A stretch of 37,405 bases of DNA from Desulfobacterales bacterium (GCA_050117895.1 JASFLX010000003.1:1-37405); one strand, 5' to 3'; positions 1-17,628 are shown, counted from the first letter of the stretch. Program-made: numbers and translations. The notes: a model not told the origin generated them from the letters alone.

Positions 1-132
1 TTAATATAAAATTTTATGCAAAACATGTCTATAAGATAAAAGGCTCATTTTTATAGGGAAAAATCCCGATCTCTAGGCAATTCCCCTATGCATTATTACA
101 AATGATTTCAATCTTTTATTTTAATTTTTTTG

Positions 133-160
133 TTGACATTTCCAGTTATAGAGGTAGAAA
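133..160 (+). promoter_or_regulatory. Possible sigma70 promoter for the phaEC operon
   Basis: TTGACA (133-138), 16-nt spacer, weak -10 TAGAAA (155-160), upstream of GAGGTG RBS and ATG 198. Confidence 0.3.
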
Positions 161-197
161 AAGACAAAAAGAATTATTGTCTTATAAAACGAGGTGA

Positions 198-1061
198 ATG
201 ATGACGGATAAAACACAGGAAAAGACAGGGCCGGAAACTTTTTTTGCGGACTGGATGAAGATGACCACGGAATTTTGGGGACCGATGTCTTGGATGTGGA
301 CCGCTTTCCATAAGACTTCTGGTAAAAGAACGGAATCATGGGATACCGCCCAAAAAACCTGGAAAGCATTTTCACAGGTTATGAGTGAACCGGAAACCAT
401 GGAAACCCTCTTGAAAGGAGCCGGTATGCTGCCGGAAATTTTTTTGAAAACAGTGCAAACCGGTTCGAAAACTTTCGTGAATTTTCAGAAGCAGTGGATG
501 GAACGTACCGGTAAGTTGCAGGAATCCACCAAAGCCTATAAATATGAAAATTTAAAGGAAGATGCATTCAAGGCGTGGAGCCAACTTTACGAACAAGAAT
601 TCAGAAAGTTTTTCAAAATTCCTCAATTGGGACTGACTCGATTGTATCAGGAAAAAATGATCCGGTCGATAGACAAATTTAACATTTATCAGGCCGCCGT
701 CTCTGAATTTTCTGGTCTTTTATTACTGCCCATGGAAAAATCATTTCAGGTCTTACAGGAAAAGCTGACAGAATTAGCGGATGAGGGAGAGCTTCCCGAA
801 GATTCAAAAAAATATTACCAGATGTGGATAAAAATACTGGAAGGCCATTACATGACGTTGTTCCAATCGTCCGAATACACACAGGCACTGAACAAGACTC
901 TTGATTCATTGTCGGAATTTTCGTCAGCAAAAAAAGAGATTCTCCAGGATTTTTTTAATATGTTTCCTGTTCCCACCCATAAAGAGATGGATGAACTATA
1001 TAAAGAAATTTACCTTTTAAAAAAGCGAATAAAAGAACTTGAAAAGAAAAATCCTGTTTAA
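198..1061 (+). CDS. phaE: Class III PHA synthase subunit PhaE
   Basis: 287 aa helical protein with PQLGLTRLYQE and C-terminal PVPTHKEMDELYKEIYLLKKRIKELE, both typical of PhaE; directly upstream of phaC. Confidence 0.9.
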   Translation: MMTDKTQEKTGPETFFADWMKMTTEFWGPMSWMWTAFHKTSGKRTESWDTAQKTWKAFSQVMSEPETMETLLKGAGMLPEIFLKTVQTGSKTFVNFQKQWMERTGKLQESTKAYKYENLKEDAFKAWSQLYEQEFRKFFKIPQLGLTRLYQEKMIRSIDKFNIYQAAVSEFSGLLLLPMEKSFQVLQEKLTELADEGELPEDSKKYYQMWIKILEGHYMTLFQSSEYTQALNKTLDSLSEFSSAKKEILQDFFNMFPVPTHKEMDELYKEIYLLKKRIKELEKKNPV

Positions 1062-1145
1062 TCTAATTTTGTTACATTAAAATAGCATAAAAAATGATTC
1101 CGAATTCAAGAATCCAAAATTTAAAATTGAATGGGGAGTAATTTT

Positions 1146-2327
1146 ATGACTCAATCCAAAATAGCCGTTGATCTGATTCTTTCAAAGCTGGCCGAAGAGG
1201 CGGAAAAGGCCCGGACGCGTGCTGAGAAGGCCTCGGAAGTATTGCTCGGGCCTCTTGAAACAGAAATTGCCACCACGCCGTGTGATGTCGTTTATGAAGA
1301 AGACCGGATAAAACTGAAACATTATAAGCCGGCAACCAAAATTCAGCTTAAAAGACCGCTTCTTTTGGTTTATGCTCTGATCAACCGGGAAACAATGCTT
1401 GACCTCCAGCCGGGTAAAAGCGTTGTGCAAAATTTTTTGCAGGAAGGTATAGACCTTTATATGATCGACTGGGGCTACCCCACTCGAAAAGACAGGTATC
1501 TTACCATTGATGATCATGTTAACGGGTATATAGACAACGCTGTCGATTTTATCCTCAAAAAACACAATCTGGACAAAATCAACCTGATGGGAATTTGCAT
1601 GGGCGGCACCTTTTGTGTCATTTATTCGGCCCTTCATCCTGAAAAGGTTCAAAACCTGGTGACAACGGTCACGCCGACCCATTTCGATACGGATCAGGGG
1701 CTTTTGCATATCTGGATGAAGGATATGGATGCGGATCAGATTGTGGACACTTATGGCAATATCCCCGGAGATATAATGAATTTAGGGTTTTTACTCCTTA
1801 ATCCTGCCCGGCTGATGATCGACAAATACGTAGGGTTTTTAGAAAACATGGACAATAAAAAATTCGTGGAAAATTTTGTCCGCATGGAAAAATGGATCTT
1901 TGACAGCCCGGATGTGCCGGGGGAGACATTCCGGCAATTTGTCCGGGATTGTTACCAAAAGAACCTGCTCATCCAGAGCAAGATGGAAATTGGCGGACAC
2001 CGTGTGGATCTCAAGAAAATCACCATGCCCCTTTTGAACTATTACGGCAAATACGACCATCTTGTACCCCCGGAAGCCTGCGAGCCCCTTACAAGCAAAG
2101 TAGGCAGCAAAGATACCGAAAATGTCTGTCTTAATACGGGCCATATCGGTATTTACGTGAGTTCCAAGTGCCAAAAAGAATTTGTGCCCAGGATCGCCCA
2201 GTGGCTCAAGCAAAGGGCGGCAGATAAAAAGAAGCGCAACACAAGAAAAGCGTCCCGGAAAAAAAGTGTTGCAAAAAAGACGGCGACCCAAACCAAACCG
2301 GCATTGAAAACTAAAAAGAGGAAATAA
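1146..2327 (+). CDS. phaC: Class III PHA synthase subunit PhaC with basic C-terminal tail
   Basis: PLLLVYALINR, DLQPGKS, IDWGYP, lipase box GICMGG, Asp in KYDHLV, His in TGHIG; start moved to ATG 1146 after GGGGAG RBS. Confidence 0.95.
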   Translation: MTQSKIAVDLILSKLAEEAEKARTRAEKASEVLLGPLETEIATTPCDVVYEEDRIKLKHYKPATKIQLKRPLLLVYALINRETMLDLQPGKSVVQNFLQEGIDLYMIDWGYPTRKDRYLTIDDHVNGYIDNAVDFILKKHNLDKINLMGICMGGTFCVIYSALHPEKVQNLVTTVTPTHFDTDQGLLHIWMKDMDADQIVDTYGNIPGDIMNLGFLLLNPARLMIDKYVGFLENMDNKKFVENFVRMEKWIFDSPDVPGETFRQFVRDCYQKNLLIQSKMEIGGHRVDLKKITMPLLNYYGKYDHLVPPEACEPLTSKVGSKDTENVCLNTGHIGIYVSSKCQKEFVPRIAQWLKQRAADKKKRNTRKASRKKSVAKKTATQTKPALKTKKRK

Positions 2328-2337
2328 GGAATTTCAA

Positions 2338-2766
2338 ATGATCGGGAAAACTATCCTTGAGATTAAAATAGGAGACACCGCTGAATTTGCCAAAACGGTT
2401 ACAGAATCTGACATTTACCTGTACGCCGGTGTGACCGGCGATTTCAACCCGGCTCATATCAACGAAGATTATGCCAAAAAGACTTTTTTCAAGACGCGTA
2501 TCGCTCACGGAATGCTTTCCGCAGGTTTCATTTCCACGGTCATAGGAAATAAACTCCCCGGCACTGGAACCATTTATGTTACACAGAATTTGAGTTTTCT
2601 AGCTCCGGTGAGGATTGGCGATACTATTACTGCCAAGGTAGAAGTGGTTGATATTATTGATGATAAAAATCGGATACGGCTAAAGACCACCTGTTTCAAC
2701 CAGGAAGGTACCCAAGTGCTGAACGGGGAGGCTGTCGTCAGTCCGCCAAAGCCGCCAAAGTATTAA
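2338..2766 (+). CDS. phaJ: MaoC-family (R)-specific enoyl-CoA hydratase
   Basis: Hydratase motif GDFNPAH...IAHGML, FLAPVRIGD; adjacent to phaC. Confidence 0.85.
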   Translation: MIGKTILEIKIGDTAEFAKTVTESDIYLYAGVTGDFNPAHINEDYAKKTFFKTRIAHGMLSAGFISTVIGNKLPGTGTIYVTQNLSFLAPVRIGDTITAKVEVVDIIDDKNRIRLKTTCFNQEGTQVLNGEAVVSPPKPPKY

Positions 2767-2853
2767 ACAGTATAATTTCAATACGTTGAATTTAGGGCTT
2801 CGTCCCAATTGAAATGCTGGAATATTAAGAAATTTTCAAGTCGAGGAGAGAAT

Positions 2854-3408
2854 ATGCTGGAAGAATACCCCAAAGAGATCACCTTGCCGGACGGTTTTAT
2901 TTGTATCCTGAGGCCAATGACCCGGGACGATCAAGATGCTCTTTACAGGTTTTTCATTTCGCTTCCTGAAGAGGACAGAAGATATTTGAGAAACGATGCG
3001 ACAAACAGAATTCTTATCGAAAAATGGTGCCGTGATTTAAACTACGATAGAGTTTTGCCGATACTGGCAGAACACGAAAACAGGATACTTGCAAACGCAA
3101 CCCTTCACAGGGAGACATTTGGGTGGGGTATGCATATCGGCGAAATCAGAATCACCGTTGCCGCAGATTTTCAACAGCGTGGTCTGGGCTCTCTTCTTTT
3201 GGAAGAGCTCTCAAAACTGGCTCTTGGGTACAATCTGGAGAAACTCTGCGCAAAGATTGTTGCCTCCCGGACCTACGTGACCAGGGCTTTTGAAAAAAAT
3301 GCTTTTGTCCTGGAAGCGACTTTGAAAAACTTTGTAAAAATACTCTATGGTAAAAACTATGAAGACATTGCCGTTCTTGTAAAGGATTTAAACCAATCGT
3401 TAGTATAG
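2854..3408 (+). CDS. GNAT-family acetyltransferase resembling the GNAT domain of Pat-type protein acetyltransferases
   Basis: Motif A VAADFQQRGLG; N-terminal ITLPDG..ILRPMT; ATG 2854 follows GAGGAG. Confidence 0.8.
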   Translation: MLEEYPKEITLPDGFICILRPMTRDDQDALYRFFISLPEEDRRYLRNDATNRILIEKWCRDLNYDRVLPILAEHENRILANATLHRETFGWGMHIGEIRITVAADFQQRGLGSLLLEELSKLALGYNLEKLCAKIVASRTYVTRAFEKNAFVLEATLKNFVKILYGKNYEDIAVLVKDLNQSLV

Positions 3409-3555
3409 TGTCCATCCATAAATGAGAATTTTTGTTCAAGATCAAGGCATGTGAAAAAAATAACCGCAGGCATATGTTTAATATTCCGAGGATTATTTTT
3501 TGAACATAACGCAGAGATTGGGCAAAAAGACCATTTATGGATGGACACTAGTATA
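3401..3555. mobile_element. Non-autonomous hairpin element (MITE/REPIN-like), copy 1; body 3408-3548, flanked by 7-bp direct repeat TAGTATA
   Basis: 17-bp terminal inverted repeat GTGTCCATCCATAAATG/CATTTATGGATGGACAC, internal palindromic arms, TAGTATA at 3401-3407 and 3549-3555, second copy at 10544-10684. Confidence 0.85.
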
Positions 3556-3577
3556 GGTTATAAATAAAGGAGATGTT

Positions 3578-4771
3578 ATGCGTGAAGTGGTGATCGCAAG
3601 TGCTGTTCGTACGGCCGTGGGTTCGTTTGGGGGTACGTTGAAAAATGTAACCGCTGTTGAGTTGGGAAGCATTGTCATAAAGGAAGCCCTAACCAGAGCC
3701 AAGATTCTACCGGAAAAGATTGATGAGGTGATCATGGGTAATGTCCTGCAGGCTGGATTGGGTCAAAATCCGGCACGACAGGCCGCTAAAAGGGCGGGAA
3801 TAAGCCAATACATCCCTTCGACCACCGTTAACAAGGTGTGCGGATCGGGCATGAAAACAGTGATCATGGCTGCCCAGGCCATAAAATCCGGGGATGCGGA
3901 TATCATTGTGGCCGGGGGCATGGAGAATATGAGCGAGGCCCCTTTCGTACTGCCCCATAGCAGATGGGGTCATAGAATGGGACATGATCAGGTCATTGAT
4001 GTCATGATCCAGGACGGGCTGTGGTGCTCTTTTGGGGATACCCATATGGGTATTACCGCCGAAAACATTGCGGAAAAGTTCGGAATTAGCAGAAAAGAAC
4101 AGGACGAGTTTGCTGCCCTAAGTCAGCAAAAAGCGGAAGCAGCTATCACTTCCGGCCGTTTTAAGGACGAAATTATCCCGGTTCAAGTCCCCCAAAGAAG
4201 AGGAGATCCAATCGTTTTCGATACCGATGAATTTCCCAGATTCGGCACAACTCTGGAAAAATTGAGCAAACTTAAGCCGGCGTTCCGCAAAGACGGAACC
4301 ACCACTGCGGGAAACAGCTCAGGGATAAACGACGGCGCTGCGGCTCTTATAATTATGAGCGCTGACAAAGCCTTCAAGATGGGTATACGGCCAATGGCCA
4401 AGATTATAGGGTATGATTACCAGGGGTGCGAACCGGAGCTCATGGGTACGGGTCCTATTTATGCGGTGCGAAGCGCCATTAATAAGGTTAGAGAGGAACT
4501 GGGCAAGAACATCGACCTTGTAGAGCTCAACGAAGCCTTTGCCGCCCAGTCTATCGCATGCTTGAAAGACTTGAATCTGGACCCGGAAATTGTCAACGTC
4601 AACGGCGGTGCCATTGCCCTGGGGCACCCCATCGGATGCAGCGGCGCCAGGGTATTAACAACGTTACTCTATGAAATGGAAAAGAGGGATGCCAAAGTGG
4701 GATTGGCCGCTCTTTGCATTGGCGGAGGAATGGGAATTGCCACTATCGTTGAACGGGAATGGTACTATTGA
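3578..4771 (+). CDS. phaA: Acetyl-CoA C-acetyltransferase (beta-ketothiolase)
   Basis: NKVCGSG, NEAF, GHPIG and CIGGG thiolase motifs; PHA locus context. Confidence 0.9.
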
Positions 4772-4852
4772 GGCCCTATTGTAACCCATGACAATACCAA
4801 AATAATGCGATCTTTTCACCTGATTTTATGAACAGAAAGGGGGCAACAGCAT

Positions 4853-5398
4853 ATGATCCTTTATCAATACCCCAAATCAGAAAATCTAAAAGATGAAAGT
4901 CCTATTACGATCAGGCCGCTGAGAAAAGAAGACGAGAAAATTCTTCATGAGTATTTCTTGAGACTTCCACCAGAGGATCGGATGTGCCTCAGAGACGATG
5001 TTACCGATCCCAAAGTCATCGAAAACTGGATCTACAACCTTGACTACGATGTTGTACTTCCGCTTGTTGCCCTGGATGCTGACCATATTGTGGCCAACGG
5101 CACTCTGGAATTCGATCCCGTGGGCTGGACCAAACACCAGGGAGAAATTCGCATCACGTGCGACCCGAAATACAGAAAAAAGGGTTTGGCAACGATTCTC
5201 ATCGAAAATCTGATGCAGATCGCTGTGGATTTTGGTTTGGAACAACTCACAGCCGAGTTAGCTCCGGCCCTGGATGAAGCTTACTTTCTGTTTGAAAAAC
5301 TGGGGTTTAAGGAGGCTGCTGTTCTCAAAGATTTTATCAAGGATCTTAAGGAAAATTATCAGGATCTGGTCCTGATGGTCAAGAACATTTCGCCATAA
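4853..5398 (+). CDS. GNAT-family acetyltransferase, paralog of 2854-3408
   Basis: YRKKGLA motif A; shares LPxEDRxxLRxD, LxYDxVLP, GW, GEIRIT with the upstream GNAT. Confidence 0.8.
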   Translation: MILYQYPKSENLKDESPITIRPLRKEDEKILHEYFLRLPPEDRMCLRDDVTDPKVIENWIYNLDYDVVLPLVALDADHIVANGTLEFDPVGWTKHQGEIRITCDPKYRKKGLATILIENLMQIAVDFGLEQLTAELAPALDEAYFLFEKLGFKEAAVLKDFIKDLKENYQDLVLMVKNISP

Positions 5399-5406
5399 CG
5401 GAAATT

Positions 5407-6201
5407 CTATCCCTTGGATCCCAGACGCAGTCCGCCGTGGATATAAAAAACATCTCCGGCCAGGGCCTCGTTGCGATAGATATCTCCAACAAAAGCAGCG
5501 ACTTCTTCCGGCTCAACCAGACGTCCGATGGGCACCTGTTCTATAATCTTATCCAGGACTTTCTGATTCATTCCTTTTACCATGGGAGTTCCCACATAGC
5601 CCGGTGCAATGGCCACGCAACGGATCTTATCTGCCAGGCCGCGCCGGAAAAACTCGGCAGTGATTACTTTTGGCATAACCGACATCGCAGCCTTGCTGGA
5701 GGAATAATTGATCTGTCCCGCTGTTCCCAGAGAACCGGTGGAAGATACCAAACAGATCAATCCCTTGCAGTTATGATTGATCATGCGTTCAACGCATTCC
5801 CGCACGGTTAAAAACACACCGGTCAGGTTGATATCAATAACCGTTTGAAATTGCTCCAGAGACATTTTTCTGTTAACCTTTCCGGTTTCTCTGTCCGTGG
5901 ACAACATCAGTCCATCCTTAATAATCCCGGCAAAAGGGGCAACTAGATTGATCTGCCCGAATTTTTCAATTGCGGTATCAGCCAGTTTGGCACAATCATC
6001 TTCATTGGTAACATTACAGACCACTGAAGTAACTTCACCATGTAACTCTTTAATTTCAGCCTCGGCCTGCTCCAGAAATTTTTCAGCCACATCCGCGATA
6101 ACCACCTTGCCGCCGTTTTGCACCCAGTATTTGGCAACTGCCAGACCGATGCCGCCGCCGCCGCCGGTAATAACCGCAACGGATTCCTTAATGTTCAGCA
6201 T
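5407..6201 (-). CDS. Classical SDR, 3-oxoacyl/acetoacetyl-CoA reductase-like (FabG/PhaB-like)
   Basis: TGGGGGIG, NLTG, YSSSK catalytic motif, IAPGYVGT; start at ATG 6201 after GAGAGG. Confidence 0.8.
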   Translation of the reverse strand: MLNIKESVAVITGGGGGIGLAVAKYWVQNGGKVVIADVAEKFLEQAEAEIKELHGEVTSVVCNVTNEDDCAKLADTAIEKFGQINLVAPFAGIIKDGLMLSTDRETGKVNRKMSLEQFQTVIDINLTGVFLTVRECVERMINHNCKGLICLVSSTGSLGTAGQINYSSSKAAMSVMPKVITAEFFRRGLADKIRCVAIAPGYVGTPMVKGMNQKVLDKIIEQVPIGRLVEPEEVAAFVGDIYRNEALAGDVFYIHGGLRLGSKG

Positions 6202-6278
6202 ATTTTTCCTCTCTTTTATCACCATCTATAAGGAATGGATTTCTAAACGGTTCGTTTTTCTTAGTTTTTATGATACTG

Positions 6279-6767
6279 TCATGATTGATTTTTATTTTTT
6301 TTAAAAAATCTGCTCAGCGTCTCCATTGTTTCCTGAAACTGTTGGCTCTGCTTTTCTATTATTTCCTGAAATCCTTGAACCAATTCCCCCTGTGTCTCAA
6401 CATTTTTTTCTTCCAAAAGCACCCGCAGGTGTTTTATGGTTTCCTCCTGAGCGGCAAATTTTTCTTTGAGGTCCTCATATTTTTTGACCAGAGCCAGGTG
6501 CTCGTCTTTTGGTACCACACCCATCAGGCGCAGATAATCTTTAAAAGACTTTTGGAAATTTTCTGATGCCTTTTTCCAGGTTTCCATATAGGCTGGTGTG
6601 TCTTTCTCCATATGTTCCAGGCCGTAGAATTTATTGAACATACCCGTAAGTTCATCAAAACCTTCAAAACTCTGCTGCATCCATTTTGACATGTCTTCCA
6701 TTTGTTTCTGCCCTTTTGCGGCATTGATCAGAAAATTTCCCCAAAATTCCAGAAAATGTCTGTCCAT
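6279..6767 (-). CDS. Hypothetical helical/coiled-coil protein, weakly PhaE-like
   Basis: 162 aa from ATG 6767 after GAGGAG; paralog of 6850-7485; LMGVVPKDEH followed by coiled coil resembles the PhaE C-terminal PVPTHKEMD segment. Confidence 0.7.
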   Translation of the reverse strand: MDRHFLEFWGNFLINAAKGQKQMEDMSKWMQQSFEGFDELTGMFNKFYGLEHMEKDTPAYMETWKKASENFQKSFKDYLRLMGVVPKDEHLALVKKYEDLKEKFAAQEETIKHLRVLLEEKNVETQGELVQGFQEIIEKQSQQFQETMETLSRFFKKNKNQS

Positions 6768-6849
6768 GAAATCTTTCTCCTCACACACCTGATAACAGAG
6801 ACGGGAAAGAAAAATCGGCCGTCTTCCATCCTTCCCTGCTTAGGACATT

Positions 6850-7485
6850 TTAACTACTTGCCTGGCTTTGAAGTTGTTTTATAGACTTTATCTGACCGGC
6901 AATCTCTTTTTCCAAGTCGGCAACCCGTTTTTTTTGATTAGCAATCTCTTTGTTTTGATCAGCGATTATCTTTTTCTGATCGGAGATCTCTTTTTTTAGG
7001 TCTGTAGCAAGCTTTTTCTGATACACAACCAACATCTTTTGTTCAGATATCTCTTTTTTCAGTTCGACAACCAGCTTTTTTTGATCAACAATTTCCTTTT
7101 TCTGGTCTGTGATCATTTTCTCTTTATCAGCAACTATTTTCACCTGTTTAGATATCTCTTTTATCTTATCAGCAACACTTTCATCCATCTTATTGTATTT
7201 ATTTGCTAATTCCAGATACTCATCCTTGGGTACCAAACCCACCAAGTCCAAGTAATACTTGAAGAACTTCTGAAAGTCTTCTGTTGTCATTTCCCAGGTT
7301 TTTATATAGTCGCAAGGCTCTTTGGACCAAAAATCCATACTGCAAAATGTTCTGAACATCTCTGGAACTTCCTCAAAATCACTTAACCCTTGCATAATCA
7401 ATTTTGTCATGTCTTGCATCTGTTTTTGTCCTTTTTCTACGGTAATTAATTGATTTTTCCAGAATTCGTAAAAATATTCTTCCAT
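6850..7485 (-). CDS. Hypothetical protein, paralog of 6279-6767 with heptad-repeat tail
   Basis: AAGGAG RBS next to the upstream stop and ATG 7485 (211 aa); shares EFWxN, KGQKQM, TW, VPKDE with the downstream paralog. Confidence 0.75.
   Translation of the reverse strand: MEEYFYEFWKNQLITVEKGQKQMQDMTKLIMQGLSDFEEVPEMFRTFCSMDFWSKEPCDYIKTWEMTTEDFQKFFKYYLDLVGLVPKDEYLELANKYNKMDESVADKIKEISKQVKIVADKEKMITDQKKEIVDQKKLVVELKKEISEQKMLVVYQKKLATDLKKEISDQKKIIADQNKEIANQKKRVADLEKEIAGQIKSIKQLQSQASS
6862..7176 (-). repeat. About 15 degenerate in-frame 21-bp (7-aa) repeats, consensus [IV]xDQKK[EL]
   Basis: ITDQKKE IVDQKKL VVELKKE ISEQKML VVYQKKL ATDLKKE ISDQKKI IADQNKE IANQKKR VADLEKE. Confidence 0.85.
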
Positions 7486-7498
7486 AAGACTGTTCTCC

Positions 7499-9043
7499 TT
7501 ATAAGCTGTCTTCCAAATCCAGCTGAAACCGTACAGGTCCCCGATAGTTTTTGTCTCCAAAACGGGTATGAAGCGCACATGCGGATGTTGGATTGGACCA
7601 TGAAGTAGCAATGGCCACATGACCTTTTGGGAAAGGGGTCACTTCAACATCGATATAATCAAGAGGTGCGAGAGCCGTTTCTTTCTCAACCAGATCATCA
7701 CTTTCACCGTAGCAGATAAGCCATTTAATTCCCTTTTCCTGCAATCGTTTTAAATTAAGCTTTTTTCCAAAAAGGGTTACCGGAAACGTTCCGTTTTTGT
7801 TAATCGGGATGTTATAGGAAACAAAACTCATATGGGTAATCTCTATGGGAAGATCATTACGTTCATTGCTCATCCAGTAATTAATTGCAGCCGCCGTCTT
7901 GCTGATTTTCACATCTTTACCCCCCTGTCGGCCAAACATCATCAAATCTCTGTAAAAAGTGGCAACCGGTGATTCATCCCCTATGCTTTTGAGCTTATAG
8001 ATCCATCCCATAAGTTTGCCGTCCACAACTTTGTTTCCATTGGGCAAGGTTTTGGTTCCGTAAGCCAGATCATAAAATCGCTGGGGCAGGCTATCAAAAA
8101 AATTCGCCAGCCCCCTGCTTTTGGTTCCATCTATGGGAGCGACACAGGTGATCAGAGCATCAACCAGTCCGTCCAGCTCACCGGAAAGGAGATTGCAAAC
8201 AGCAAAAAAACCCCCCTGACAGTAACCGTTCAACGTTACGGGTTTTCCATGTCTTTTTTGCACCGTCTCACAGAACAAGCGGGTATCACGGGCATCATCT
8301 TCACCGGTCATGACCTGAATCGCCTCAGTCGTATTGATATCCTTGAGGATTCTAATATAGGTGGGAATCCCCTGGTTTGCAAAACAATGGGTGTAACTCT
8401 TATTTTCATAGGGTAAAAAGGCCAGAATATTGGCTCCCAGAACATAGGGAGGAAGAATTAGGACCGGTTTGCCGTTTTTATTGACTTTAACCTTTTTATC
8501 CGTCGGAAGGATTTGATAAAGAATGAACCGTTCTGTTTCAGTAACCTTTTTATTGTCATCCCGTTCAAAATGGAACCCATATTCCGGTTCAATATTTTGG
8601 ATGGCCTGTGGATACCTGTTGGCCATCACGTCCATCATTTTCGTCTGTCGTTCTAAAAAGGCTTCTAAATCTTCACCATCTGCACAAAAAAGCGTGTTGA
8701 ACATGGCGGCAATAGCGTTTTCCATTTCCATCTTTCCTGAAATATTTATCGCTTGCATGCCACCGCTAATACCTTTGCTTATAAGGTCAAGATTAAACGC
8801 CAAAAGATCCATATAGGATTGAACCGTCTCCAGGGGCGAAGTGCTCCAAAGTTTGTTTTTTTCCACATTATTGAAATAGCTTATAGCAATCAAATAGGGG
8901 AGCATAAAATCATTGGCGTACTTGGACATAGCACTCAGGTAATTTTGTGAGGCACTAATGAGGTGAGAGAATGCAGAAACGTTTTTGCGAAATATCTTGT
9001 TAAGAAATTCAGGATCATTCGGGCTGTTCTTCACCTTAACCAT
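7499..9043 (-). CDS. Atypical PHA synthase/depolymerase-like alpha/beta hydrolase with Cys nucleophile
   Basis: PVLILPPYV, lipase box GYCQGG, LITCVAPID, Asp in GESDDLV, His in KGHVA, in the same order as in PhaC. Confidence 0.7.
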   Translation of the reverse strand: MVKVKNSPNDPEFLNKIFRKNVSAFSHLISASQNYLSAMSKYANDFMLPYLIAISYFNNVEKNKLWSTSPLETVQSYMDLLAFNLDLISKGISGGMQAINISGKMEMENAIAAMFNTLFCADGEDLEAFLERQTKMMDVMANRYPQAIQNIEPEYGFHFERDDNKKVTETERFILYQILPTDKKVKVNKNGKPVLILPPYVLGANILAFLPYENKSYTHCFANQGIPTYIRILKDINTTEAIQVMTGEDDARDTRLFCETVQKRHGKPVTLNGYCQGGFFAVCNLLSGELDGLVDALITCVAPIDGTKSRGLANFFDSLPQRFYDLAYGTKTLPNGNKVVDGKLMGWIYKLKSIGDESPVATFYRDLMMFGRQGGKDVKISKTAAAINYWMSNERNDLPIEITHMSFVSYNIPINKNGTFPVTLFGKKLNLKRLQEKGIKWLICYGESDDLVEKETALAPLDYIDVEVTPFPKGHVAIATSWSNPTSACALHTRFGDKNYRGPVRFQLDLEDSL

Positions 9044-9077
9044 ATCTGTTTACCCCTCCCCGTAATTTAAAACATTA

Positions 9078-9128
9078 TGTGGCTCATAGCCATACCCCGA
9101 AGTTCCTACAGGCTGGCCATGAACCACA
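9078..9128 (-). terminator. Intercistronic hairpin (attenuator or mRNA stabiliser) after the phasin-like genes
   Basis: 15-bp stem 9078-9092/9114-9128 that is fully paired only on the - strand (two G-U); no strong U tract. Confidence 0.55.
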
Positions 9129-9142
9129 CTTAAAACTTGGCT

Positions 9143-9409
9143 TTATTTGCTAAAACCGGTAAAACATTTTTCCAGATTTTGATAATTTTGGTCAACTATC
9201 TTTTTGAAATCATCACAACCTTTTTTATAGCTCTTCATCCACTCAGTTATGGCTTTTTTCCCCTGCTCGGGCATCCATGTTGCTTGATCTAAAAGAGAGT
9301 TTGCCATTTTTTCGTTCTGCTCCCTAAACATGGTCATTGTGTTATAGCCGTTGTCAAAGGCGGTTTTATTGAATTGAGCCATCTGCTTAAAAATTTGATA
9401 TTGTTCCAT
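9143..9409 (-). CDS. Small helical phasin-like protein B
   Basis: 88 aa amphipathic helical protein, about half identical without gaps to 9427-9711; GGAG RBS; divergent from phaR. Confidence 0.65.
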   Translation of the reverse strand: MEQYQIFKQMAQFNKTAFDNGYNTMTMFREQNEKMANSLLDQATWMPEQGKKAITEWMKSYKKGCDDFKKIVDQNYQNLEKCFTGFSK

Positions 9410-9426
9410 TACGTTATCTCCTTACC

Positions 9427-9711
9427 TTATTTTTTGGTTTCTTGATTCTTATCAAATGCGCTAAAAAAATTTTCCACCCTTTTAAAGTTTTCATCCACGC
9501 TCTTTTTAAAATCCTCACGCCCTTTTTTATAGGCTTTTACCCAATCATTGATCGCATTTCTTCCTTCTTCGGGCATCCATGTGGCCTGATTCAAGATAGT
9601 ACCGGCCATACTTTCGGCCTGCTCCTGAAGCAAAACCATGGCATTGAAAGTGTTGTCAAACGTTGTTTTCTGAAAATCGATCATTTGCTTTGCAATTTTT
9701 GATGAATCCAT
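9427..9711 (-). CDS. Small helical phasin-like protein A
   Basis: 94 aa, KQMIDFQKTTFDN...QATWMPEEG...YKKGREDFKK; AGGAGGG RBS; first gene downstream of a PhaR-type box. Confidence 0.65.
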   Translation of the reverse strand: MDSSKIAKQMIDFQKTTFDNTFNAMVLLQEQAESMAGTILNQATWMPEEGRNAINDWVKAYKKGREDFKKSVDENFKRVENFFSAFDKNQETKK

Positions 9712-9769
9712 GTTAATAATCCCTCCTGTTAATTTTTTTTATTTTATGGCTTGAGGCGTTCATGTCTGA

Positions 9770-9797
9770 ATAATAACCTTTAACTTTTATTTGTCAA
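9770..9797 (-). promoter_or_regulatory. Sigma70 promoter of the - strand PHA operon
   Basis: On the - strand TTGACA (9797-9792), 16 nt, TATTAT (9775-9770). Confidence 0.6.
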
Positions 9798-9807
9798 GAA
9801 AAAATGT

Positions 9808-9819
9808 TGCGATGCAGCA
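9808..9819. promoter_or_regulatory. Putative PhaR operator TGCGATGCAGCA
   Basis: TGC-N3-GCA core in A/T flanks, 10 bp upstream of the -35 and between the phasin-like genes and phaR. Confidence 0.65.
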
Positions 9820-9986
9820 ATTTTTTATCTGTTTTAAATCTATTCCGTTATAAACTAACAACCACCTTTAATTTATTATAAATATATTAGATCTAAAATA
9901 TGAAATTAGATCTAAAAAAAGATTTTTTATCGCAATAGAACATAAAATAAGTTTGTGAATTTTATTTTCAAAATAAGGAAAAACAG

Positions 9987-10460
9987 ATGTCCGATAAAGT
10001 AAAACTAAAAAAATATGCCAACAGACGATTGTACGACATGGAAAAAAGCGCATATGTTACACTCCATCAGGTGGCGGATCTCATCAGACAGGGCCGTCAG
10101 GTGGAAGTGATTGATGCAAAAAGCAAAGAGGACGTAACCGCCTCTATTCTCAGCCAAATCATTCTGGAGGAAGCAAAAAACAAAAACATTCTTTTGCCGG
10201 TGCCGGTTCTTCACCTGATTATTCAATACGGTGATAATGTACTGGGAGAATTTTTTGAGAAATACCTTCAGCAAATGATTCAGACATACCTTGCCCATAG
10301 ACATGCAGTTGACGACCAGTTTAAAAAATGGCTCGAAATGGGACAGGATTTTTCAAATATGGCCCAAGAAACTATGGCCGCTCTATCACCCTTCAAATCC
10401 TTTTTTGATCAATTTTCTTCTTTTTCAAATAAACAGGAGCAAAAAAAGGAAGAAGAATAA
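9987..10460 (+). CDS. phaR: PHA synthesis repressor PhaR
   Basis: KKYANRRLYD...YVTL..V..LIRQG...DAKSKEDVT..IL.QIILEE DNA-binding domain. Confidence 0.92.
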   Translation: MSDKVKLKKYANRRLYDMEKSAYVTLHQVADLIRQGRQVEVIDAKSKEDVTASILSQIILEEAKNKNILLPVPVLHLIIQYGDNVLGEFFEKYLQQMIQTYLAHRHAVDDQFKKWLEMGQDFSNMAQETMAALSPFKSFFDQFSSFSNKQEQKKEEE

Positions 10461-10537
10461 ATAAACGGAAAGAAAATTCTAACTCATAGTAATCAGGGAA
10501 AATATGTGTTCGGACATAAACTTTTCTATCGCTGAAT

Positions 10538-10690
10538 TAGTTAGTGTTCATCCATAAATGAGGATTTTTGTTCAAGATCAAGGCATGCGAAAAAAATAAC
10601 CGCAGACATATAGTTGATATTTCGAGGATTATTTTTTGAGCATAACGCAGAAATTGGGCAAAAAGACCATTTATGGATGAACACTAGTTA
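10538..10690. mobile_element. Hairpin element copy 2; body 10544-10684, flanked by 6-bp direct repeat TAGTTA
   Basis: 141 bp with 11 substitutions versus copy 1; TIR GTGTTCATCCATAAATG/CATTTATGGATGAACAC; TAGTTA at 10538-10543 and 10685-10690. Confidence 0.85.
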
Positions 10691-11524
10691 TATTTCGGGA
10701 ACCATTTGACGCAATTCTTCATAAGAGAAAACCGGGCCATCAACACACACGTACTTCGTACCGATATTGCATCGTCCACAGATGCCTATTCCGCATTTCA
10801 TGCGTTTTTCTAACGTAGTAATGATCTGATGATCTTCAAAATCCAACCGTTTGAGTCCTATGAGAACAAACTTGATCATAATGGGCGGTCCACAGGTAAC
10901 AGCTTTGCAATTATAAGAACTTGGCGCTTCTTCGGTCAGGACGGTAGGGACAAAACCAACCCGCTCCTTCCAACCCGGAAACTCACGGTCCACGGTGAGT
11001 ACCAGTCTTACGCCACCGGATCGCCATTCATCAAATTCATAGGTGTAGCAAAGATCTTCCGGCGAACGGGCACCGTAAATCAACATGATATCACCGTAAT
11101 CCTCACGGTTATCAAGCATGTAAAGAAGCAGTGTGCGCAACGGGGCCATGCCGATGCCGCCGGCGATAAAGAGAATATCATGTGCTTTTAACTTATCAAC
11201 GGGAAAACCGTTGCCCAGAGGGGCGCGCACCCCGATCTGATCTCCGATATTCAGCTGGTGTAGCCGCTGGGTCACCTCACCGGTGCGCATCACACTGAAT
11301 TGCAAATAATCTTTTCGAGTTGGCGGCGAATTTATTACAAAGGTGGATTCTCCCACTCCAAAAACGGAAAGTTGCCCGACCTGCCCGGGTTGAAATGAAA
11401 ATTCTCGCATCTTTTGTTCGTCGTTCAAAACCACGCGAAAGGTCAGGATATTTGAAGTCTCCTGAATAATATCCTGAATGGTCGCCAATTCCGGTAGAAA
11501 GGGATTAGAATCAATTTTCGGCAT
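10688..11524 (-). CDS. flxA: FAD/NAD-binding [2Fe-2S] subunit FlxA
   Basis: RAPLGNGF, AGGIGMAP, CGPPIM, MKCGIGICGRC...VCVDGPVF; last gene of the hdr-flx cluster. Confidence 0.9.
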   Translation of the reverse strand: MPKIDSNPFLPELATIQDIIQETSNILTFRVVLNDEQKMREFSFQPGQVGQLSVFGVGESTFVINSPPTRKDYLQFSVMRTGEVTQRLHQLNIGDQIGVRAPLGNGFPVDKLKAHDILFIAGGIGMAPLRTLLLYMLDNREDYGDIMLIYGARSPEDLCYTYEFDEWRSGGVRLVLTVDREFPGWKERVGFVPTVLTEEAPSSYNCKAVTCGPPIMIKFVLIGLKRLDFEDHQIITTLEKRMKCGIGICGRCNIGTKYVCVDGPVFSYEELRQMVPEI

Positions 11525-12575
11525 CCACTGCCTCCTTCAAATGATGTACAATCTTGCGTATGTCTATGAATACGGGGCAACTTCGGATACATCGTCCACA
11601 CCCGCAACAGGATATCATGCCGTTATACGTATCAGGAAAATAGGAAAATTTATGGCCCACCCGGTTCCGATAACGTTCAAATTTTTCGGGCCGCGGATTA
11701 TGGCCGCTGGCTTCCAAGGTGTAATGATAGAACATACAGGAATCCCAGGAGCGTATCCGCTCGCCCTCAAGATCCCTGGATTCATCCGTAATATTGAAAC
11801 AATAACAGGTCGGACAAACAAATGTGCAAATTCCGCAACTAATACACCTGGAGACCATATCGCGCCAATAATCCATATCTTCAAAACGACCCGTGAAATC
11901 TTTTGCACTCCGGGTTAAATCATATTCTCCAATACGTTTGGCTGTTACTTGTTCTTGAATTCGCTGAGCTTTTTCTATCTGTTCGGGCGTGGCTGGTTTT
12001 CCCATTATGGGAATCAGCTTCCGGCCCTTGTCATTAAGTGCTTCGATCACATAGCCGTCGTCCACCGGAACCATCCAAAGATCACTGCCCTCCCTATCTC
12101 CGGGACCGCTGTCCACGGATGAGCAGAAACAGGCACTGTCTTCCGTGTCGCACAGCAGGGTTGCAAACAGGGTTTTTTCCCGGCATTGTGCATAATATGG
12201 ATCTTTATATCTGCCGTTAAGAAAGACGTGGTCAAAGGTAAAAAAACCGCGCACATCACAAGGGCGTGCCCCAAAAACAAGAGCAGAGGATACCTCCTGG
12301 CGGTCTTTTAGATCAATGCGCTGTTTGGAAGGATCTTGGCTATCCTTTTGATACCGGAAACGCAATAAGGTTTCTACTTGTGGAAACAACACGTTTTTCG
12401 GACCTATAGTGCTTTGCCGGTCTAATACAACGACGTTATCCCTGTAATACGGTAAAAACCGAACGCCCCATTTTTCATCTCCCATCTCAACCGGAACCCA
12501 GACATCCATTTCTTTGGAAAGACGCTCCAGCATGGCAGCCAGCTCACCTTGAGCAATAAAGATTTTTTCGTACAT
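11511..12575 (-). CDS. flxB: 4Fe-4S dicluster subunit FlxB (AsrA/HydB-like)
   Basis: GARPCD, CISCGICTFVCPTCYCF, RSWDSC, CCGCGRCIRSCP. Confidence 0.85.
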   Translation of the reverse strand: MYEKIFIAQGELAAMLERLSKEMDVWVPVEMGDEKWGVRFLPYYRDNVVVLDRQSTIGPKNVLFPQVETLLRFRYQKDSQDPSKQRIDLKDRQEVSSALVFGARPCDVRGFFTFDHVFLNGRYKDPYYAQCREKTLFATLLCDTEDSACFCSSVDSGPGDREGSDLWMVPVDDGYVIEALNDKGRKLIPIMGKPATPEQIEKAQRIQEQVTAKRIGEYDLTRSAKDFTGRFEDMDYWRDMVSRCISCGICTFVCPTCYCFNITDESRDLEGERIRSWDSCMFYHYTLEASGHNPRPEKFERYRNRVGHKFSYFPDTYNGMISCCGCGRCIRSCPVFIDIRKIVHHLKEAVDAEN

Positions 12576-12599
12576 GAATTGTTTTCTCTCAGCTTATCA

Positions 12600-13568
12600 T
12601 CATATTCCCTTCTCACTGGGATCAAAGGTCAGCAAGGGCGGTTGTTTTTGAGGGTCGATCCCGGCTTCGTAGTCCAGAAGCTCCTTAACGATTTGATTCA
12701 GTTTCTTTTTAATCAATGTTACCGGTATCTCCACCGGGCAGACGCGTTCGCATTCGCCACATTCAGTACAGCGTCCGGCAAGATGCATAGCGTGGATCAT
12801 ATGATAAAAGAATTTTTCCTTAAGATCACAACGTTGGGCAAGCCACTTGGGAGTTCGGGTCTCCACAATACAACTGTCCCGGCACACACACAGCGGACAC
12901 GCATTGCGACAGGCATAGCAGCGAATACATCGGTCAATTTCTTTTTCCCAAAATTTCAGACGATCCGGTAGCGAATACTGTTCTATCTTTTCAACATCCC
13001 CATAGGCTTGGTCATCTCCGGCATGGGGCGTTATGGGTTCACCGACAAGCAAATCATAAATGATCGGATTGGGATACCGACAATGCAGGCATCTTTGTTC
13101 CATTACGTGCTGCAGTGGAAAACGATATGTCTTTTGTGCGGTTTCAACCACTAGCTCTTGGCCTTGGATGGTTACCTTTTGAACATCCTTTAAAGATGGC
13201 TCAAAACGCATGAGCCGATGCCAATTCACCGTGCCTTCACAAGGTATGCCCACTATATAAAGGGTTTCCCGGGTGACAAATTTTTCCTGAATTAAAGCGA
13301 CCAGAGAACGACTGTCGCATCCTTTGACACAAATGCCGATTTTTTTGCCGTCTTCCCGGACCGAGGCATTCAGAGTTTTTACTAAATAATTACAAAGATT
13401 CTGGGAACACAGAGGATTCCAAACCAGTTTGTTAAGATCTTCTACCTGACGGATGAAAGACGGCGAAGCATGTAAAGAATCGTAGCCGGGTTCCCAACCG
13501 AGCACGACCTCAAGTTTTTCGAAAACTTTTAAAAACTCTCTTTGTAATGTTTTGGCCTTGTCTTCCAT
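12600..13568 (-). CDS. flxC: 4Fe-4S subunit FlxC (FrhB/FdhB-like)
   Basis: KGCDSRS, CIRCYACRNACPLCVC, HLAGRCTECGECERVCP; start could also be GTG 13574. Confidence 0.85.
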   Translation of the reverse strand: MEDKAKTLQREFLKVFEKLEVVLGWEPGYDSLHASPSFIRQVEDLNKLVWNPLCSQNLCNYLVKTLNASVREDGKKIGICVKGCDSRSLVALIQEKFVTRETLYIVGIPCEGTVNWHRLMRFEPSLKDVQKVTIQGQELVVETAQKTYRFPLQHVMEQRCLHCRYPNPIIYDLLVGEPITPHAGDDQAYGDVEKIEQYSLPDRLKFWEKEIDRCIRCYACRNACPLCVCRDSCIVETRTPKWLAQRCDLKEKFFYHMIHAMHLAGRCTECGECERVCPVEIPVTLIKKKLNQIVKELLDYEAGIDPQKQPPLLTFDPSEKGI

Positions 13569-13674
13569 AAGCACTTTTATTGTTTTAGCAGCGTATCAAT
13601 AAATTATGGATTCGGGTCAATATAATTATTTCATTCACCGGAACTTATTGGCAATTTACTTTTTTTATTAATTC

Positions 13675-14148
13675 CTAATCAAAAAATGACATCATCGCTT
13701 TAGCGTTACTTTCTCCATGAACGCCGGGGTTCGGTCCCAAACCATGAATTGTTTCGGAAAACTCTGTAACCACCTGTTGCCAGAGCTGTCCTTCAGAAGA
13801 CGATACCCAGGTATAACGGAATCGATCCGTGTGAATTCCCATAAACGGCAAAAATTGCTTAAGGACCTCCAGGCGCCGCCTGGCATAAAAATTACCCTCG
13901 TTATAATGGCAATCTTTAGGATGGCAGCCGGATACCAGCACGCCATCAGCGCCATAGATAAGGGCTTTGACAACAAACAGAGGATCCATACGCCCGGTAC
14001 ATGGTATACGGATGATACGTAAATCTGTGGGCTGGTGAAACCGGCACACACCGGCGGTATCTGCACCGCCATAGGAGCACCAGTTGCATAAAAATCCCAC
14101 AATTAATAAATCTTTTTTTGTTGTGGATTCCTCTTTGGAATTAACCAT
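13675..14148 (-). CDS. flxD: MvhD-family [2Fe-2S] subunit FlxD
   Basis: FLCNWCSYGGAD, RIPCTGR, GCHPKDCHY; ATG 14148 overlaps the hdrA end. Confidence 0.9.
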   Translation of the reverse strand: MVNSKEESTTKKDLLIVGFLCNWCSYGGADTAGVCRFHQPTDLRIIRIPCTGRMDPLFVVKALIYGADGVLVSGCHPKDCHYNEGNFYARRRLEVLKQFLPFMGIHTDRFRYTWVSSSEGQLWQQVVTEFSETIHGLGPNPGVHGESNAKAMMSFFD

Positions 14149-16114: not shown

Positions 16115-16125
16115 ATGTTCCTACC

Positions 16126-17034: not shown

Positions 17035-17046
17035 AATGTCCTTTGG

Positions 17047-17628
17047 CTAATCGATATTCTTTTTATTACGATAATCTTCAAAACGTTTAAAAATATCGGA
17101 AACTTGTTTCCGCCCGCGAATTCGGTGCGGTATGATGGGAAGCTTGCCTTTCTTGAGCACCTTTGGCGCAAGATCGATGTCCGTAAAAGGCTTTTTGGCT
17201 TTGAGGTTATATTTCGCCAGCAATCCGGTTTCGAACACACGTCCAAAAATTTTTACTGAATTGATGAATTCGTCATAAAAGAGCTGGATATTTTTTATGG
17301 AGACCGTGTCTTCTTCGACCGAAAGAAATCGCAAGGTTTCCATAACGCGGGCAATATCGATATTGCAAGGGCATCGTGTTGTACAGGCCTGGCAGTCGGC
17401 ACACAACCAGATAGAGCGAGACCGCAACACAGCCTCCTTCTGACCCAGCTGGATCAAGCGCATGATCTGATTAACAGGATAATCATAAACATAAGTATAA
17501 GCGCAACTTGCACTGCAATTGCCACACTGATAGCATTTGGAAATCTGCTGCCTGCTTTCTGTTTCCACTTGATGGATAAAATTGTCATCACAGTCCCGTG
17601 GCATCCGGAGACCATTTACAAGTGTCAT
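17047..17628 (-). CDS. hdrC: Heterodisulfide reductase-like subunit HdrC
   Basis: CYQCGNCSASC, IWLCADCQACTTRCP. Confidence 0.93.
   Translation of the reverse strand: MTLVNGLRMPRDCDDNFIHQVETESRQQISKCYQCGNCSASCAYTYVYDYPVNQIMRLIQLGQKEAVLRSRSIWLCADCQACTTRCPCNIDIARVMETLRFLSVEEDTVSIKNIQLFYDEFINSVKIFGRVFETGLLAKYNLKAKKPFTDIDLAPKVLKKGKLPIIPHRIRGRKQVSDIFKRFEDYRNKKNID

Follow-up and report, generated by a model that had tools for sequence, protein, structure and literature searches.

A fifth lineage of the PhaC/PhaZ superfamily within the phasin operon of sulfate-reducing Desulfobacterota

What does an additional PhaC-like enzyme do in an anaerobe that already encodes a canonical polyhydroxyalkanoate (PHA) synthase? 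The question is raised by a 37,405-nucleotide (nt) stretch of DNA from a Desulfobacterales bacterium (GCA_050117895.1 JASFLX010000003.1:1-37405), referred to here in its entirety as the window, with positions counted from its first letter. PHA synthases have long been arranged in an established scheme of four classes; to our knowledge, PHA metabolism in anaerobes is known only through the class III enzyme PhaEC, and we know of no account of how sulfate reducers re-mobilise the polymer. An earlier note, made from the sequence alone, drew attention to six open reading frames (ORFs), all on the - strand and together spanning 5407-9711, as a second PHA operon encoding an unusual 514-amino-acid (aa) enzyme. 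We find that this region is the phasin operon, probably under PhaR control, of a Desulfobacterales PHA locus, with the enzyme, here called PhaCL, embedded in it. What is new is that PhaCL is a fifth PhaC/PhaZ superfamily lineage residing within the phasin operon of sulfate-reducing Desulfobacterota. We discuss below the operon, the family and its partners, and then what PhaCL may do.

The operon opens with two ORFs for phasin-like paralogs, Ph1 (9427..9711, - strand, 94 aa) and Ph2 (9143..9409, - strand, 88 aa), and continues on the same strand with PhaCL (7499..9043, 514 aa), two paralogous coiled-coil proteins, the lineage-specific CC1 (6850..7485, 211 aa) and the conserved orthologue CC2 (6279..6767, 162 aa), and a FabG/PhaB-like reductase of the short-chain dehydrogenase/reductase family (SDR; 5407..6201). 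The outer limits are those first stated, while three of the start sites are best moved inwards. CC1, listed as 6850-7620 (256 aa), most likely begins at the ATG at 7485, behind a GGAG and 13 nt past the PhaCL stop, so that the 256-aa ORF overlapping PhaCL is an over-extension; CC2, listed as 6279-6788, likely begins at the ATG at 6767, behind GAGGAG; and the SDR gene, listed as 5407-6225, most likely begins at 6201, in agreement with the 264-aa median of its orthologues. A weak terminator-like hairpin with a stem of 5 base pairs (9080..9092, - strand) in the 99-nt gap between Ph2 and PhaCL is a possible attenuator.

Divergent from the operon lies phaR (9987..10460, + strand), encoding a 157-aa regulator with the PHB_acc_N DNA-binding domain (PF07879, 93.5 bits against a cut-off of 25; TIGR01848, 101.1 bits, slightly below its cut-off of 109.45). 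The 275-nt region between phaR and Ph1 holds the best of 17 sigma-70-type promoter sites in 5200-10100, TTGACA-16-TATTAT (9770..9797, - strand), which is recognised only by its agreement with 11 of 12 consensus positions. A PhaR-type operator, the palindrome TGCATCGCA (TGC-N3-GCA; 9808..9816, - strand) within TTGCTGCATCGCAACA (9805-9820), lies 11 bases upstream of the -35 hexamer; boxes of the TGC-N3-GCA type are PhaR binding sites in Paracoccus and Rhodobacter. The six-gene unit, its promoter and its operator-like box are therefore all present as the earlier note had drawn them, and comparison with relatives shows them to be a conserved, PhaR-linked arrangement: the box occurs in all 59 PhaR-phasin intergenic regions inspected (58 related loci and the window), with comparable spacing to the phasin start, and far more often than a 6-base pattern would turn up by chance in some 300 nt.

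The surroundings of PhaCL were compared across the best 80 of at least 585 confirmed loci, annotated by tblastn with the window's proteins; counts below refer to loci with enough sequence for the feature in question. In 69 of 78 loci, the 1.5 kb upstream of PhaCL contain a Ph gene on its strand (two copies in 47 loci, one in 22 and three in 1, with up to five Ph-like matches in the single locus L025). A CC gene lies within 800 nt downstream in 49 of 75 loci and phaR within 4 kb in 54 of 68, and a class III phaC shares the locus in 29 of the 35 that extend at least 8 kb on both sides. The phasin-like and coiled-coil genes are, in other words, conserved neighbours. The position of the SDR gene moves among relatives; here and in several of them it follows in the same operon. 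The core arrangement also reaches beyond the order, for 10 of 12 loci from other families of the phylum contain PhaR, Ph and PhaCL, nine of them also CC, and in one family of the phylum (L098, G451:C355) two tandem class I PhaC genes (TIGR01838, 763 and 656 bits) adjoin the PhaR-Ph-PhaCL-SDR module in place of class III phaEC. PhaCL stands alone, unlinked to such genes, in 8 of the 80 loci (L013, L027, L029, L045, L047, L065-L067), among them the second of the two copies of Desulfonema magnum (L028, L029); since the neighbours of these copies differ from locus to locus and are mutually unrelated, they provide no functional clue. One genome (G559; L097, G559:C43) has tandem duplicate PhaCL genes, and 20 PhaCL-positive genomes of the 301-genome sample described below show at least two PhaCL matches, some of which are pieces of a single gene.

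To which family, then, does PhaCL belong? It matches no Pfam family, PhaC_N and Abhydrolase_1 included, and among NCBIfam models it reaches TIGR01836 (class III PhaC) alone, with 27.6 bits (E 1.3e-6) against a cut-off of 365.3. A single-sequence phmmer search of Protein Data Bank sequences returned no relevant match, and BLASTP finds the little similarity to the window's own class III PhaC that had been noticed before (E 0.002, 26% identity over 130 aa, with the Cys boxes aligned). The family itself is large: more than 2131 relatives at E<=0.001 among the 8000 candidates scored, none with a precomputed Pfam domain and variously named "hypothetical protein", "metal transporter" or, once, "poly(3-hydroxyalkanoate) synthetase" in their source records; 289 clusters at 50% identity in a library of 1.84 billion proteins, 103 of them at E<=1e-30; and at least 585 confirmed loci in a one-genome-per-species collection. 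We found no description of the family in the full-text collection searched, which excludes most subscription journals and supplements.

The kinship with PhaC becomes clear from motifs, profiles and fold. The catalytic motifs GYCQGG (C275), GESDDLV (D449) and KGHVA (H475) stand in the order usual for PhaC, as the earlier note had proposed, and these three residues, together with P199 and P303, are the five invariant columns among 41 full-length members that range down to 22% identity; the nucleophile box is G[YF]CQGG in 80 of 80 orthologues. The best matches of a profile of the 41 members are sequences from PhaC crystal structures (5xav, E 7.7e-9, followed by 5hz2, 6k3c, 5t6o and 9knj), with GyCqGG aligned to GfCvGG, the Asp of "kDdlV" to that of "eDHIV", and GH to GH. 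In NCBIfam and Pfam scans of the same members, class III PhaC is matched weakly by 30 and class I by 6, the best TIGR01836 match having E 3.9e-12 and all lying far under the cut-off, while TIGR01849 (PhaZ) is matched by none of the 41, PF06850 is absent from the ten Pfam families that any of them matches, and PF11339 (DUF3141) is matched by one (E 0.0047). An AlphaFold2 model of PhaCL (mean predicted local distance difference test score 92.3, predicted template-modelling score 0.89) has three long helices (residues 11-64, 70-118 and 126-150), forming an N-terminal domain of about residues 11-150, ahead of a PhaC-like alpha/beta-hydrolase domain, which has a helical cap and carries C275, D449 and H475. 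Foldseek places PhaC entries at ranks 1 to 14 (E 3e-12 to 4.5e-10; generic hydrolases at about 1e-7), and structural alignment with VIA gives Z scores of 27.0-29.3 for seven PhaC entries (root-mean-square deviation 3.0-4.0 A over 302-320 residues), the next fold being gastric lipase with Z 23.7. Neighbours of PhaCL in the Atlas mix PhaC and PF06850 clusters at scores of 0.94-0.96, which serve as leads only.

Two variations on the PhaCL architecture are recorded here as observations. A C-terminal tail of at least 40 aa is present in 23 of the 80 orthologues (for example L040, L055, L061, L062, L069, L070, L071, L074, L077 and L078), and 12 of these 23 tails consist to at least 55% of Lys, Ala, Pro and Thr; the window's PhaCL is tailless. 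Histone-H1-like tails of a similar kind occur in PhaF and PhaM, and the tails count among the signs of a link to the granule. In addition, one 938-aa protein (P0135) of the representative library, a single representative, has a TIR domain and an NB-ARC STAND NTPase ahead of a PhaCL-type catalytic domain (GICQGG), and may be a genuine fusion of defence type or a chimera created in assembly.

Related loci encode two further PhaC-superfamily proteins, which allow PhaCL to be placed more closely: a PF06850 protein of about 470 aa (67-86 bits), found beside phaR in L016, L018, L021, L023, L033, L050 and L073, and a DUF3141 protein of about 740 aa (737-781 bits), found beside phaR in L015, L053, L054, L063 and L064. 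In hhalign comparisons of profiles built from locus-derived sequences (-M 50, no secondary-structure scoring), class III PhaC is related to PhaCL (probability 91.1%, E 1.1e-6), to PF06850 (96.8%, E 2.7e-10) and to DUF3141 (97.8%, E 6.9e-13). PhaCL itself is related to DUF3141 over 97 columns around the nucleophile (74.6%, E 2.6e-5, 34% identity) and shows no relation to the seven PF06850 proteins of related loci (0.2%, E 0.31); with -M first, its match to class III PhaC is 36-42%. A quick IQ-TREE analysis of 50 sequences over 414 columns (27 PhaCL, 10 class III, 2 class I from G451, 7 PF06850 and 4 DUF3141), unrooted, with long branches flagged and with classes II and IV and the characterised PhaZ1 enzymes outside the sample, puts each group on one side of a branch, PhaCL with a Shimodaira-Hasegawa-like approximate likelihood-ratio test (SH-aLRT) value of 99 and PF06850 joined to DUF3141 at 89. 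PhaCL is accordingly the fifth, unnamed and most divergent lineage of the PhaC/PhaZ1/DUF3141 superfamily, linked to the rest via PhaC. Placement by hidden Markov models and phylogeny, the check that the earlier note had suggested, puts it inside no curated family: it resembles enzymes of the PhaC superfamily, a kind already known, but is a member of none of PhaC classes I and III, PF06850 and DUF3141.

Conserved residues distinguish these lineages only in part. C275, W390, D449, G474 and H475 are conserved in all five lineages and so do not discriminate synthase from depolymerase. PhaCL, the synthases and DUF3141 share S216 and the glycines of GxCxGG, unlike the PF06850 proteins, which have an AICQPG box and Ala and His at the S216 and D305 columns; D305 of PhaCL is, among the synthases, common to class I only. 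In related loci the nucleophile box is G[IV]CMGG in 58 of 59 class III PhaC proteins, GNCQGG in 4 of 4 full-length DUF3141 proteins and AICQPG in 7 of 7 PF06850 proteins. The remark in the earlier note that CQ boxes are found in PhaZ1-type depolymerases and DUF3141 proteins holds for these sequences, but the box does not discriminate, for GVCQGG is found in the two class III PhaC proteins with the highest TIGR01836 scores of the genome sample (519 bits in G069, 490 bits in G117). As both exceed the curated cut-off, the CQ box was dropped as a depolymerase marker.

The small proteins encoded around PhaCL help to define the setting in which it works. Ph1 and Ph2 are 52% identical (E 3e-36) and match no Pfam or NCBIfam model at E<=0.1 (Phasin_2, PF05597, PhaP_Bmeg and TIGR01837/01841 included); the Atlas cluster of Ph1 is automatically named "Phasin family protein", while its Atlas neighbours with phasin families score 0.80-0.81, which is chance level. 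Their context is that of the phasin functional class, as they are small, helical, present in multiple copies, encoded first behind a predicted PhaR-controlled promoter and linked to phaC, and in this contextual sense the description of the pair as phasins can be kept. CC1 and CC2 are paralogs (40% identity over 130 aa, E 4e-31). The C-terminal half of CC1 consists of 21-nt (heptad) tandem repeats, KKEISDQKK-like, with at least six copies at 6881-7128, and a second CC gene is present only in the closest relatives of the window (L001-L004, L007, L008), so CC1 looks like a recently duplicated gene whose heptad array has expanded. CC2 has 749 relatives, all hypothetical or mis-named and without Pfam domain.

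Calling CC1 and CC2 two PhaE-like paralogs, as was done before, is correct as regards paralogy but not supported as regards PhaE. PF09712 (PhaE) is matched by 0 of 27 CC members even at E<=1, and no PhaE or class IV PhaR model is among the NCBIfam matches at E<=0.1; in the same 27 members, sub-threshold matches go to Phasin_2 (8) and Phasin PF05597 (5). BLASTP of the CC proteins against the window's PhaE gives E 0.12 and 0.65, and hhalign aligns CC residues 39-112 with the last ~90 residues of PhaE at a probability of 24.8% (E 7.8e-4, 74 columns, a V-P-x-x-E...L-K motif). Nor is a dedicated multi-subunit enzyme of PhaCL and CC, the other part of that proposal, supported by where these genes are found: in 14 genomes with class III PhaC and without PhaCL, the Ph family is present in 12, often beside phaC, and a CC-like gene lies directly behind the phasin genes in 7 (strong matches in G240 and G117, weak ones in five others). 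As Ph and CC occur without PhaCL, they look like general granule-coat proteins, and PhaCL like an enzyme lodged in their operon. Complex prediction for PhaCL with CC2 gave 0.06 and 0.00 against a mark of 0.32, values that speak neither for nor against binding.

How PhaCL is distributed relative to synthases and to the other paralogs was followed in 301 genomes of the order; since these genomes are mutually related, the counts are descriptive and not a statistical test. PhaCL is present in 106 genomes, class III PhaC above its cut-off in 119 and both in 100. PF06850 occurs in 27 genomes, 26 of them also with PhaCL, and DUF3141 in 100, 90 of them with class III PhaC; among the 106 PhaCL-positive genomes, 76 have DUF3141 and 26 PF06850. 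Class III PhaC occurs without PhaCL in 19 genomes, 17 of which have DUF3141, and 118 of the 119 class III-positive genomes have at least one of PhaCL, DUF3141 and PF06850. Apart from cross-matches on phaC, no PF06850, DUF3141 or PF10503 gene was found in the window's own genome, which is 86% complete, and neither PF06850 nor DUF3141 occurs in any of ten genomes of its taxonomic family (0/10 each). PhaCL is also carried by 19 genomes outside the order in a phylum sample of 401, 15 of them with a canonical PhaC, so that over both samples a canonical synthase accompanies PhaCL in 117 of 125 genomes. Because PhaCL stands beside class III synthases or, in G451, beside two class I synthases, it is kept whichever synthase class is present.

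Genomes in which PhaCL seems to lack a synthase deserve separate mention. Six in the order were first read in this way and none proved a clean case: G178 has a class I PhaC, G143 a class III PhaC fragment at a contig end, G103 a phaE cut by a contig end, and G265 a PhaCL contig of 4.9 kb that holds a 30-aa PhaC fragment, while the PhaCL copy of G110 lies among no recognisable pha genes and the PhaCL match of G091 is partial only. Outside the order, the contig of G467 ends after maoC, where phaC would follow, and G573 is 81% complete. This leaves G450 and G537 (99% complete), in which no class I or III PhaC, PF06850 or DUF3141 was found at E<=1e-5 and no PhaE at E<=1e-3; their loci run GNAT, thiolase, GNAT, phaR, Ph, Ph, PhaCL (with an intact GYCQGG), CC and SDR. 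In G450 the contig breaks off about 200 nt past GNAT, where the window has phaJ-phaC-phaE, and that of G537 continues for 1.65 kb beyond the GNAT gene without a pha gene. Given several assembly artefacts among the 125 genomes, these two apparent exceptions are weak evidence.

RNA libraries provide a view of the operon in the environment. It is present in libraries of wetland samples, and of 24 metatranscriptome-labelled runs that contain part of it, 14 contain at least half of its sampled words. Contigs from four runs of four studies, aligned to window positions 1-12000, cover every 400-nt bin over 5200-9700, with summed depth peaking at 9201-9600, the phasin genes, in all four (299, 54, 57 and 209); depth over the operon is 2.5-299, and there is little or none over phaE-phaC (1-2800), phaR (10001-10400) and 10801-12000. 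These runs were chosen because they contain the operon, and their contigs, which show presence and not levels, strand or transcript ends, cannot rank genes, so no conclusion is drawn on phaEC expression; the uneven cover hints weakly at a source other than contaminating DNA.

Taken together, these observations make it quite probable that PhaCL is controlled by PhaR, is located at the PHA granule and works by covalent catalysis, a 3-hydroxyacyl thioester on Cys275 serving to exchange acyl units between coenzyme A (CoA) and polymer ends. In such a scheme, PhaR would leave the TGC-N3-GCA box once the neighbouring class III PhaEC had made polymer, and the derepressed operon would furnish the granule surface with Ph1, Ph2, the phasin-like CC protein and PhaCL. 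There His475 and Asp449 would activate Cys275, which would carry an (R)-3-hydroxyacyl thioester, and PhaCL would pass the acyl group from CoA to the hydroxyl terminus of a PHA chain or the other way. As to net direction, we lean tentatively, and with less than even confidence, towards CoA-dependent mobilisation, that is, thiolysis of PHA to 3-hydroxyacyl-CoA in reverse of the synthase, which would keep the thioester energy in an energy-limited anaerobe and let SDR and thiolase return 3-hydroxybutyryl-CoA to acetyl-CoA. Mobilisation is suggested because PhaCL is almost never found without a canonical synthase, of either class, because it is the only extra paralog found in the window's genome and family, and because induction by the polymer itself suits a catabolic enzyme. 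The likeness to PhaC is no obstacle in this respect: the PF06850 profile is nearer to class III PhaC than PhaCL is, so similarity to PhaC alone is no evidence of polymerase activity.

Several observations nevertheless weigh against mobilisation. PhaCL keeps the full GxCxGG, S216 and D305 as in synthases, which the PF06850 proteins do not; the depolymerase-type models find no echo in it (hhalign probability 0.2% with PF06850, TIGR01849 in 0 of 41 members, PF06850 matched by none); and the two families do not stand in for each other, PhaCL being present in 26 of the 27 PF06850 genomes, often next to the PF06850 gene. Nineteen class III-positive genomes manage without PhaCL, and the loci of G450 and G537, if their want of PhaC is real, would have PhaCL as their only possible polymerase. 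More generally, enzyme activity, granule binding and PhaR binding are all predictions, and RNA contigs chosen for this stretch indicate presence rather than transcript levels.

The same residues and loci bear on whether PhaCL is instead a second PHA synthase, the founder of a fifth class in which a single polypeptide has its N-terminal helical domain in place of PhaE or PhaR. Such an enzyme, widespread in sulfate-reducing Desulfobacterota, would act, with or without CC, as a feed-forward polymerase that is made from the phasin promoter as soon as the first polymer is present and that may accept a different range of monomers; it would be the sole polymerase in lineages such as G537 and G450. 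We regard this as only slightly less likely than mobilisation. Its nearest relatives in sequence and structure are indeed synthases, with GxCxGG complete and S216, D305 and W390 in the synthase state, and a helical N-terminal domain followed by the catalytic domain is also the order of full-length class I PhaC, with VIA aligning 9knl and 9knj from residues 41-42 of the model onwards; yet the residues shared with synthases are found in DUF3141 as well, a family of unknown function. The CC gene is tightly coupled downstream (13-nt gap), faintly resembles the PhaE C-terminus and is followed here and in several relatives by SDR in the same operon, but CC is not specific to PhaCL. And whereas PhaCL is the sole PhaC-superfamily gene beside thiolase, SDR, phasin genes and phaR in G450 and G537, the eight genomes without a canonical synthase, set against 117 of 125 with one, include assembly breaks (G103, G467), the 4.9-kb contig of G265 and the 81% complete G573, so that a PhaCL-only state rests on one or two draft genomes and lies within what incompleteness would lead one to expect.

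A role in neither bulk synthesis nor bulk mobilisation, as might also be imagined for the DUF3141 proteins, would make PhaCL another granule enzyme: a hydrolytic esterase or oligomer hydrolase, a chain-transfer or transesterifying enzyme remodelling polymer ends, or a protein acyltransferase. That PhaCL forms a separate deep lineage with local similarity to DUF3141 at the nucleophile, that it coexists with DUF3141 (76/106) and PF06850 (26/106), which would leave a non-redundant third role, and that second copies lie unlinked among unrelated genes (8/80 loci) are all compatible with this. We nonetheless think it unlikely, as no specific alternative chemistry has positive support and as the invariant Cys, in place of Ser, and the PhaC-like cap would point to thioester chemistry with CoA substrates. 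That PhaCL has nothing to do with PHA and owes its position to coincidence is scarcely credible and close to refuted. The name "metal transporter" in NCBI records and Atlas clusters, and second copies outside PHA loci, are what could be cited in its favour, but the model shows a soluble protein of alpha/beta-hydrolase fold that has a catalytic triad and none of the features of a transporter, and the gene stays linked to phaR, phasin genes and phaEC throughout the order and outside it, with phaC co-occurring in 100 of 106 genomes.

The remainder of the window places the operon within a larger locus. A canonical PHA gene set opens it on the + strand: phaE (198..1061; PF09712, 81.4 bits), class III phaC (1131..2327; TIGR01836, 444.2 bits, above the 365.3 cut-off) and, by profile matches, a phaJ-like MaoC hydratase (2338..2766), a GNAT protein (2809..3408), the thiolase phaA (3578..4771) and a second GNAT protein (4853..5398). 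The Ph1-to-SDR operon is convergent to this set. Its SDR (PF00106, 136.6 bits; NF006072, 236.6 bits, and TIGR01829, 143.5 bits, both under their cut-offs) is the sole acetoacetyl-CoA reductase candidate of the locus. The earlier picture of a second operon with a reductase of its own is not supported, the SDR being the only PhaB candidate of the whole locus and mobile among relatives; the locus reads better as one integrated PHA supercluster. The GNAT-thiolase-GNAT trio (2809-5398) is kept as a block beside the PhaR/PhaCL module in distant families of the phylum (L096, L099, L104), and the first GNAT is weakly similar to the protein acetyltransferase Pat (NF058543, E 2.5e-7) and may be an acetyl-CoA-linked regulator of the pathway.

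A 147-nt repeat resembling a miniature inverted-repeat transposable element occurs in two copies (3406-3552 and 10542-10688) that are 93% identical and directly oriented, bounded by the terminal inverted repeats GTGTCCATCCATAAATG ... CATTTATGGATGGACAC, and flank the 7-kb thiolase-to-phaR segment. It has 64 matches, full and partial and on both strands, in the window's own draft genome, and RNA-library contigs pile up on it and connect its two copies. Directly after the PHA locus comes an electron-transfer cluster (10688-17628 and 19031-20341) with FlpD/MvhD-like proteins, an HdrA-like flavoprotein with ferredoxin domains, HdrB/C-like CCG proteins and a DHODB-type FAD/NAD protein, a kind of cluster typical of sulfate reducers. 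Farther along are a gene for a 547-aa protein joining an AAA_22/STAND-like ATPase to an OmpA domain (22282-23925) and a tRNA gene (24079-24163; Rfam RF00005, 54.5 bits).

The interest of PhaCL goes beyond a single locus. Nearly every class III-positive genome of the order (118/119) carries at least one extra uncharacterised PhaC-superfamily paralog, and PhaCL, large as a family and highly conserved, is mis-named "metal transporter". Were it a CoA-dependent depolymerase, it would supply the missing, energy-conserving half of the PHA cycle of anaerobes; were it a synthase, it would add a class to the four-class scheme and a new scaffold for bioplastic engineering. Either way, a curated model and a correct name would mend the annotation of many genomes.

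Among known systems, the operon as a whole comes closest to the phaP-phaR operons of Paracoccus, Rhodobacter and Ralstonia, in which phaR is likewise divergent and the operator lies over the upstream edge of a strong promoter, and like PhaR-regulated phasin operons in general it encodes multi-copy small helical proteins first. Unlike them, its small proteins match no phasin model of Pfam or NCBIfam, and it also encodes an enzyme, PhaCL, and, here, a reductase. The CC proteins are similar to PhaE (PF09712) and the class IV PhaR subunit in being helical coiled-coil proteins encoded beside a PhaC-type gene; they differ from PhaE in being half the size, in occurring also without PhaCL and in that their weak matches go to phasin families.

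For PhaCL itself, the comparison is with three kinds of enzyme. With PhaC (class III TIGR01836 and class I TIGR01838; 5xav, 6k3c, 5hz2, 5t6o, 9knj-l) it shares the alpha/beta-hydrolase core and cap, the G-x-C-x-G-G box, the order Cys-Asp-His, the conserved Trp (W390), Ser and Asp at the S216 and D305 columns, and a gene in a pha locus; yet identity is 14-21%, its 150-residue three-helix N-terminus is its own, its gene lies inside the phasin operon, and the residue after the catalytic Asp is Asp (DD) where PhaC has His (DH). The Ralstonia eutropha PhaZ1-type enzyme is a Cys enzyme able to thiolyse poly(3-hydroxybutyrate) with CoA. With the PhaZ1/PhaZa1 type (PF06850, TIGR01849) PhaCL has in common the Cys-Asp-His triad, C-Q at the nucleophile and, in related loci, a gene beside phaR, and the chemistry proposed for it, an acyl-Cys intermediate with CoA as acceptor, is likewise that of PhaZ1-type enzymes; its box, however, is GYCQGG and not the AICQPG of PF06850, and the co-occurrence of the two in 26 of 27 genomes is not mutual replacement. 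The DUF3141 proteins (PF11339, about 740 aa, function unknown) resemble PhaCL in the CQGG box, there GNCQGG, and in their pha-locus setting in the same organisms, and they differ from it in length, in the N-terminal region and in forming a clade that groups with PF06850.

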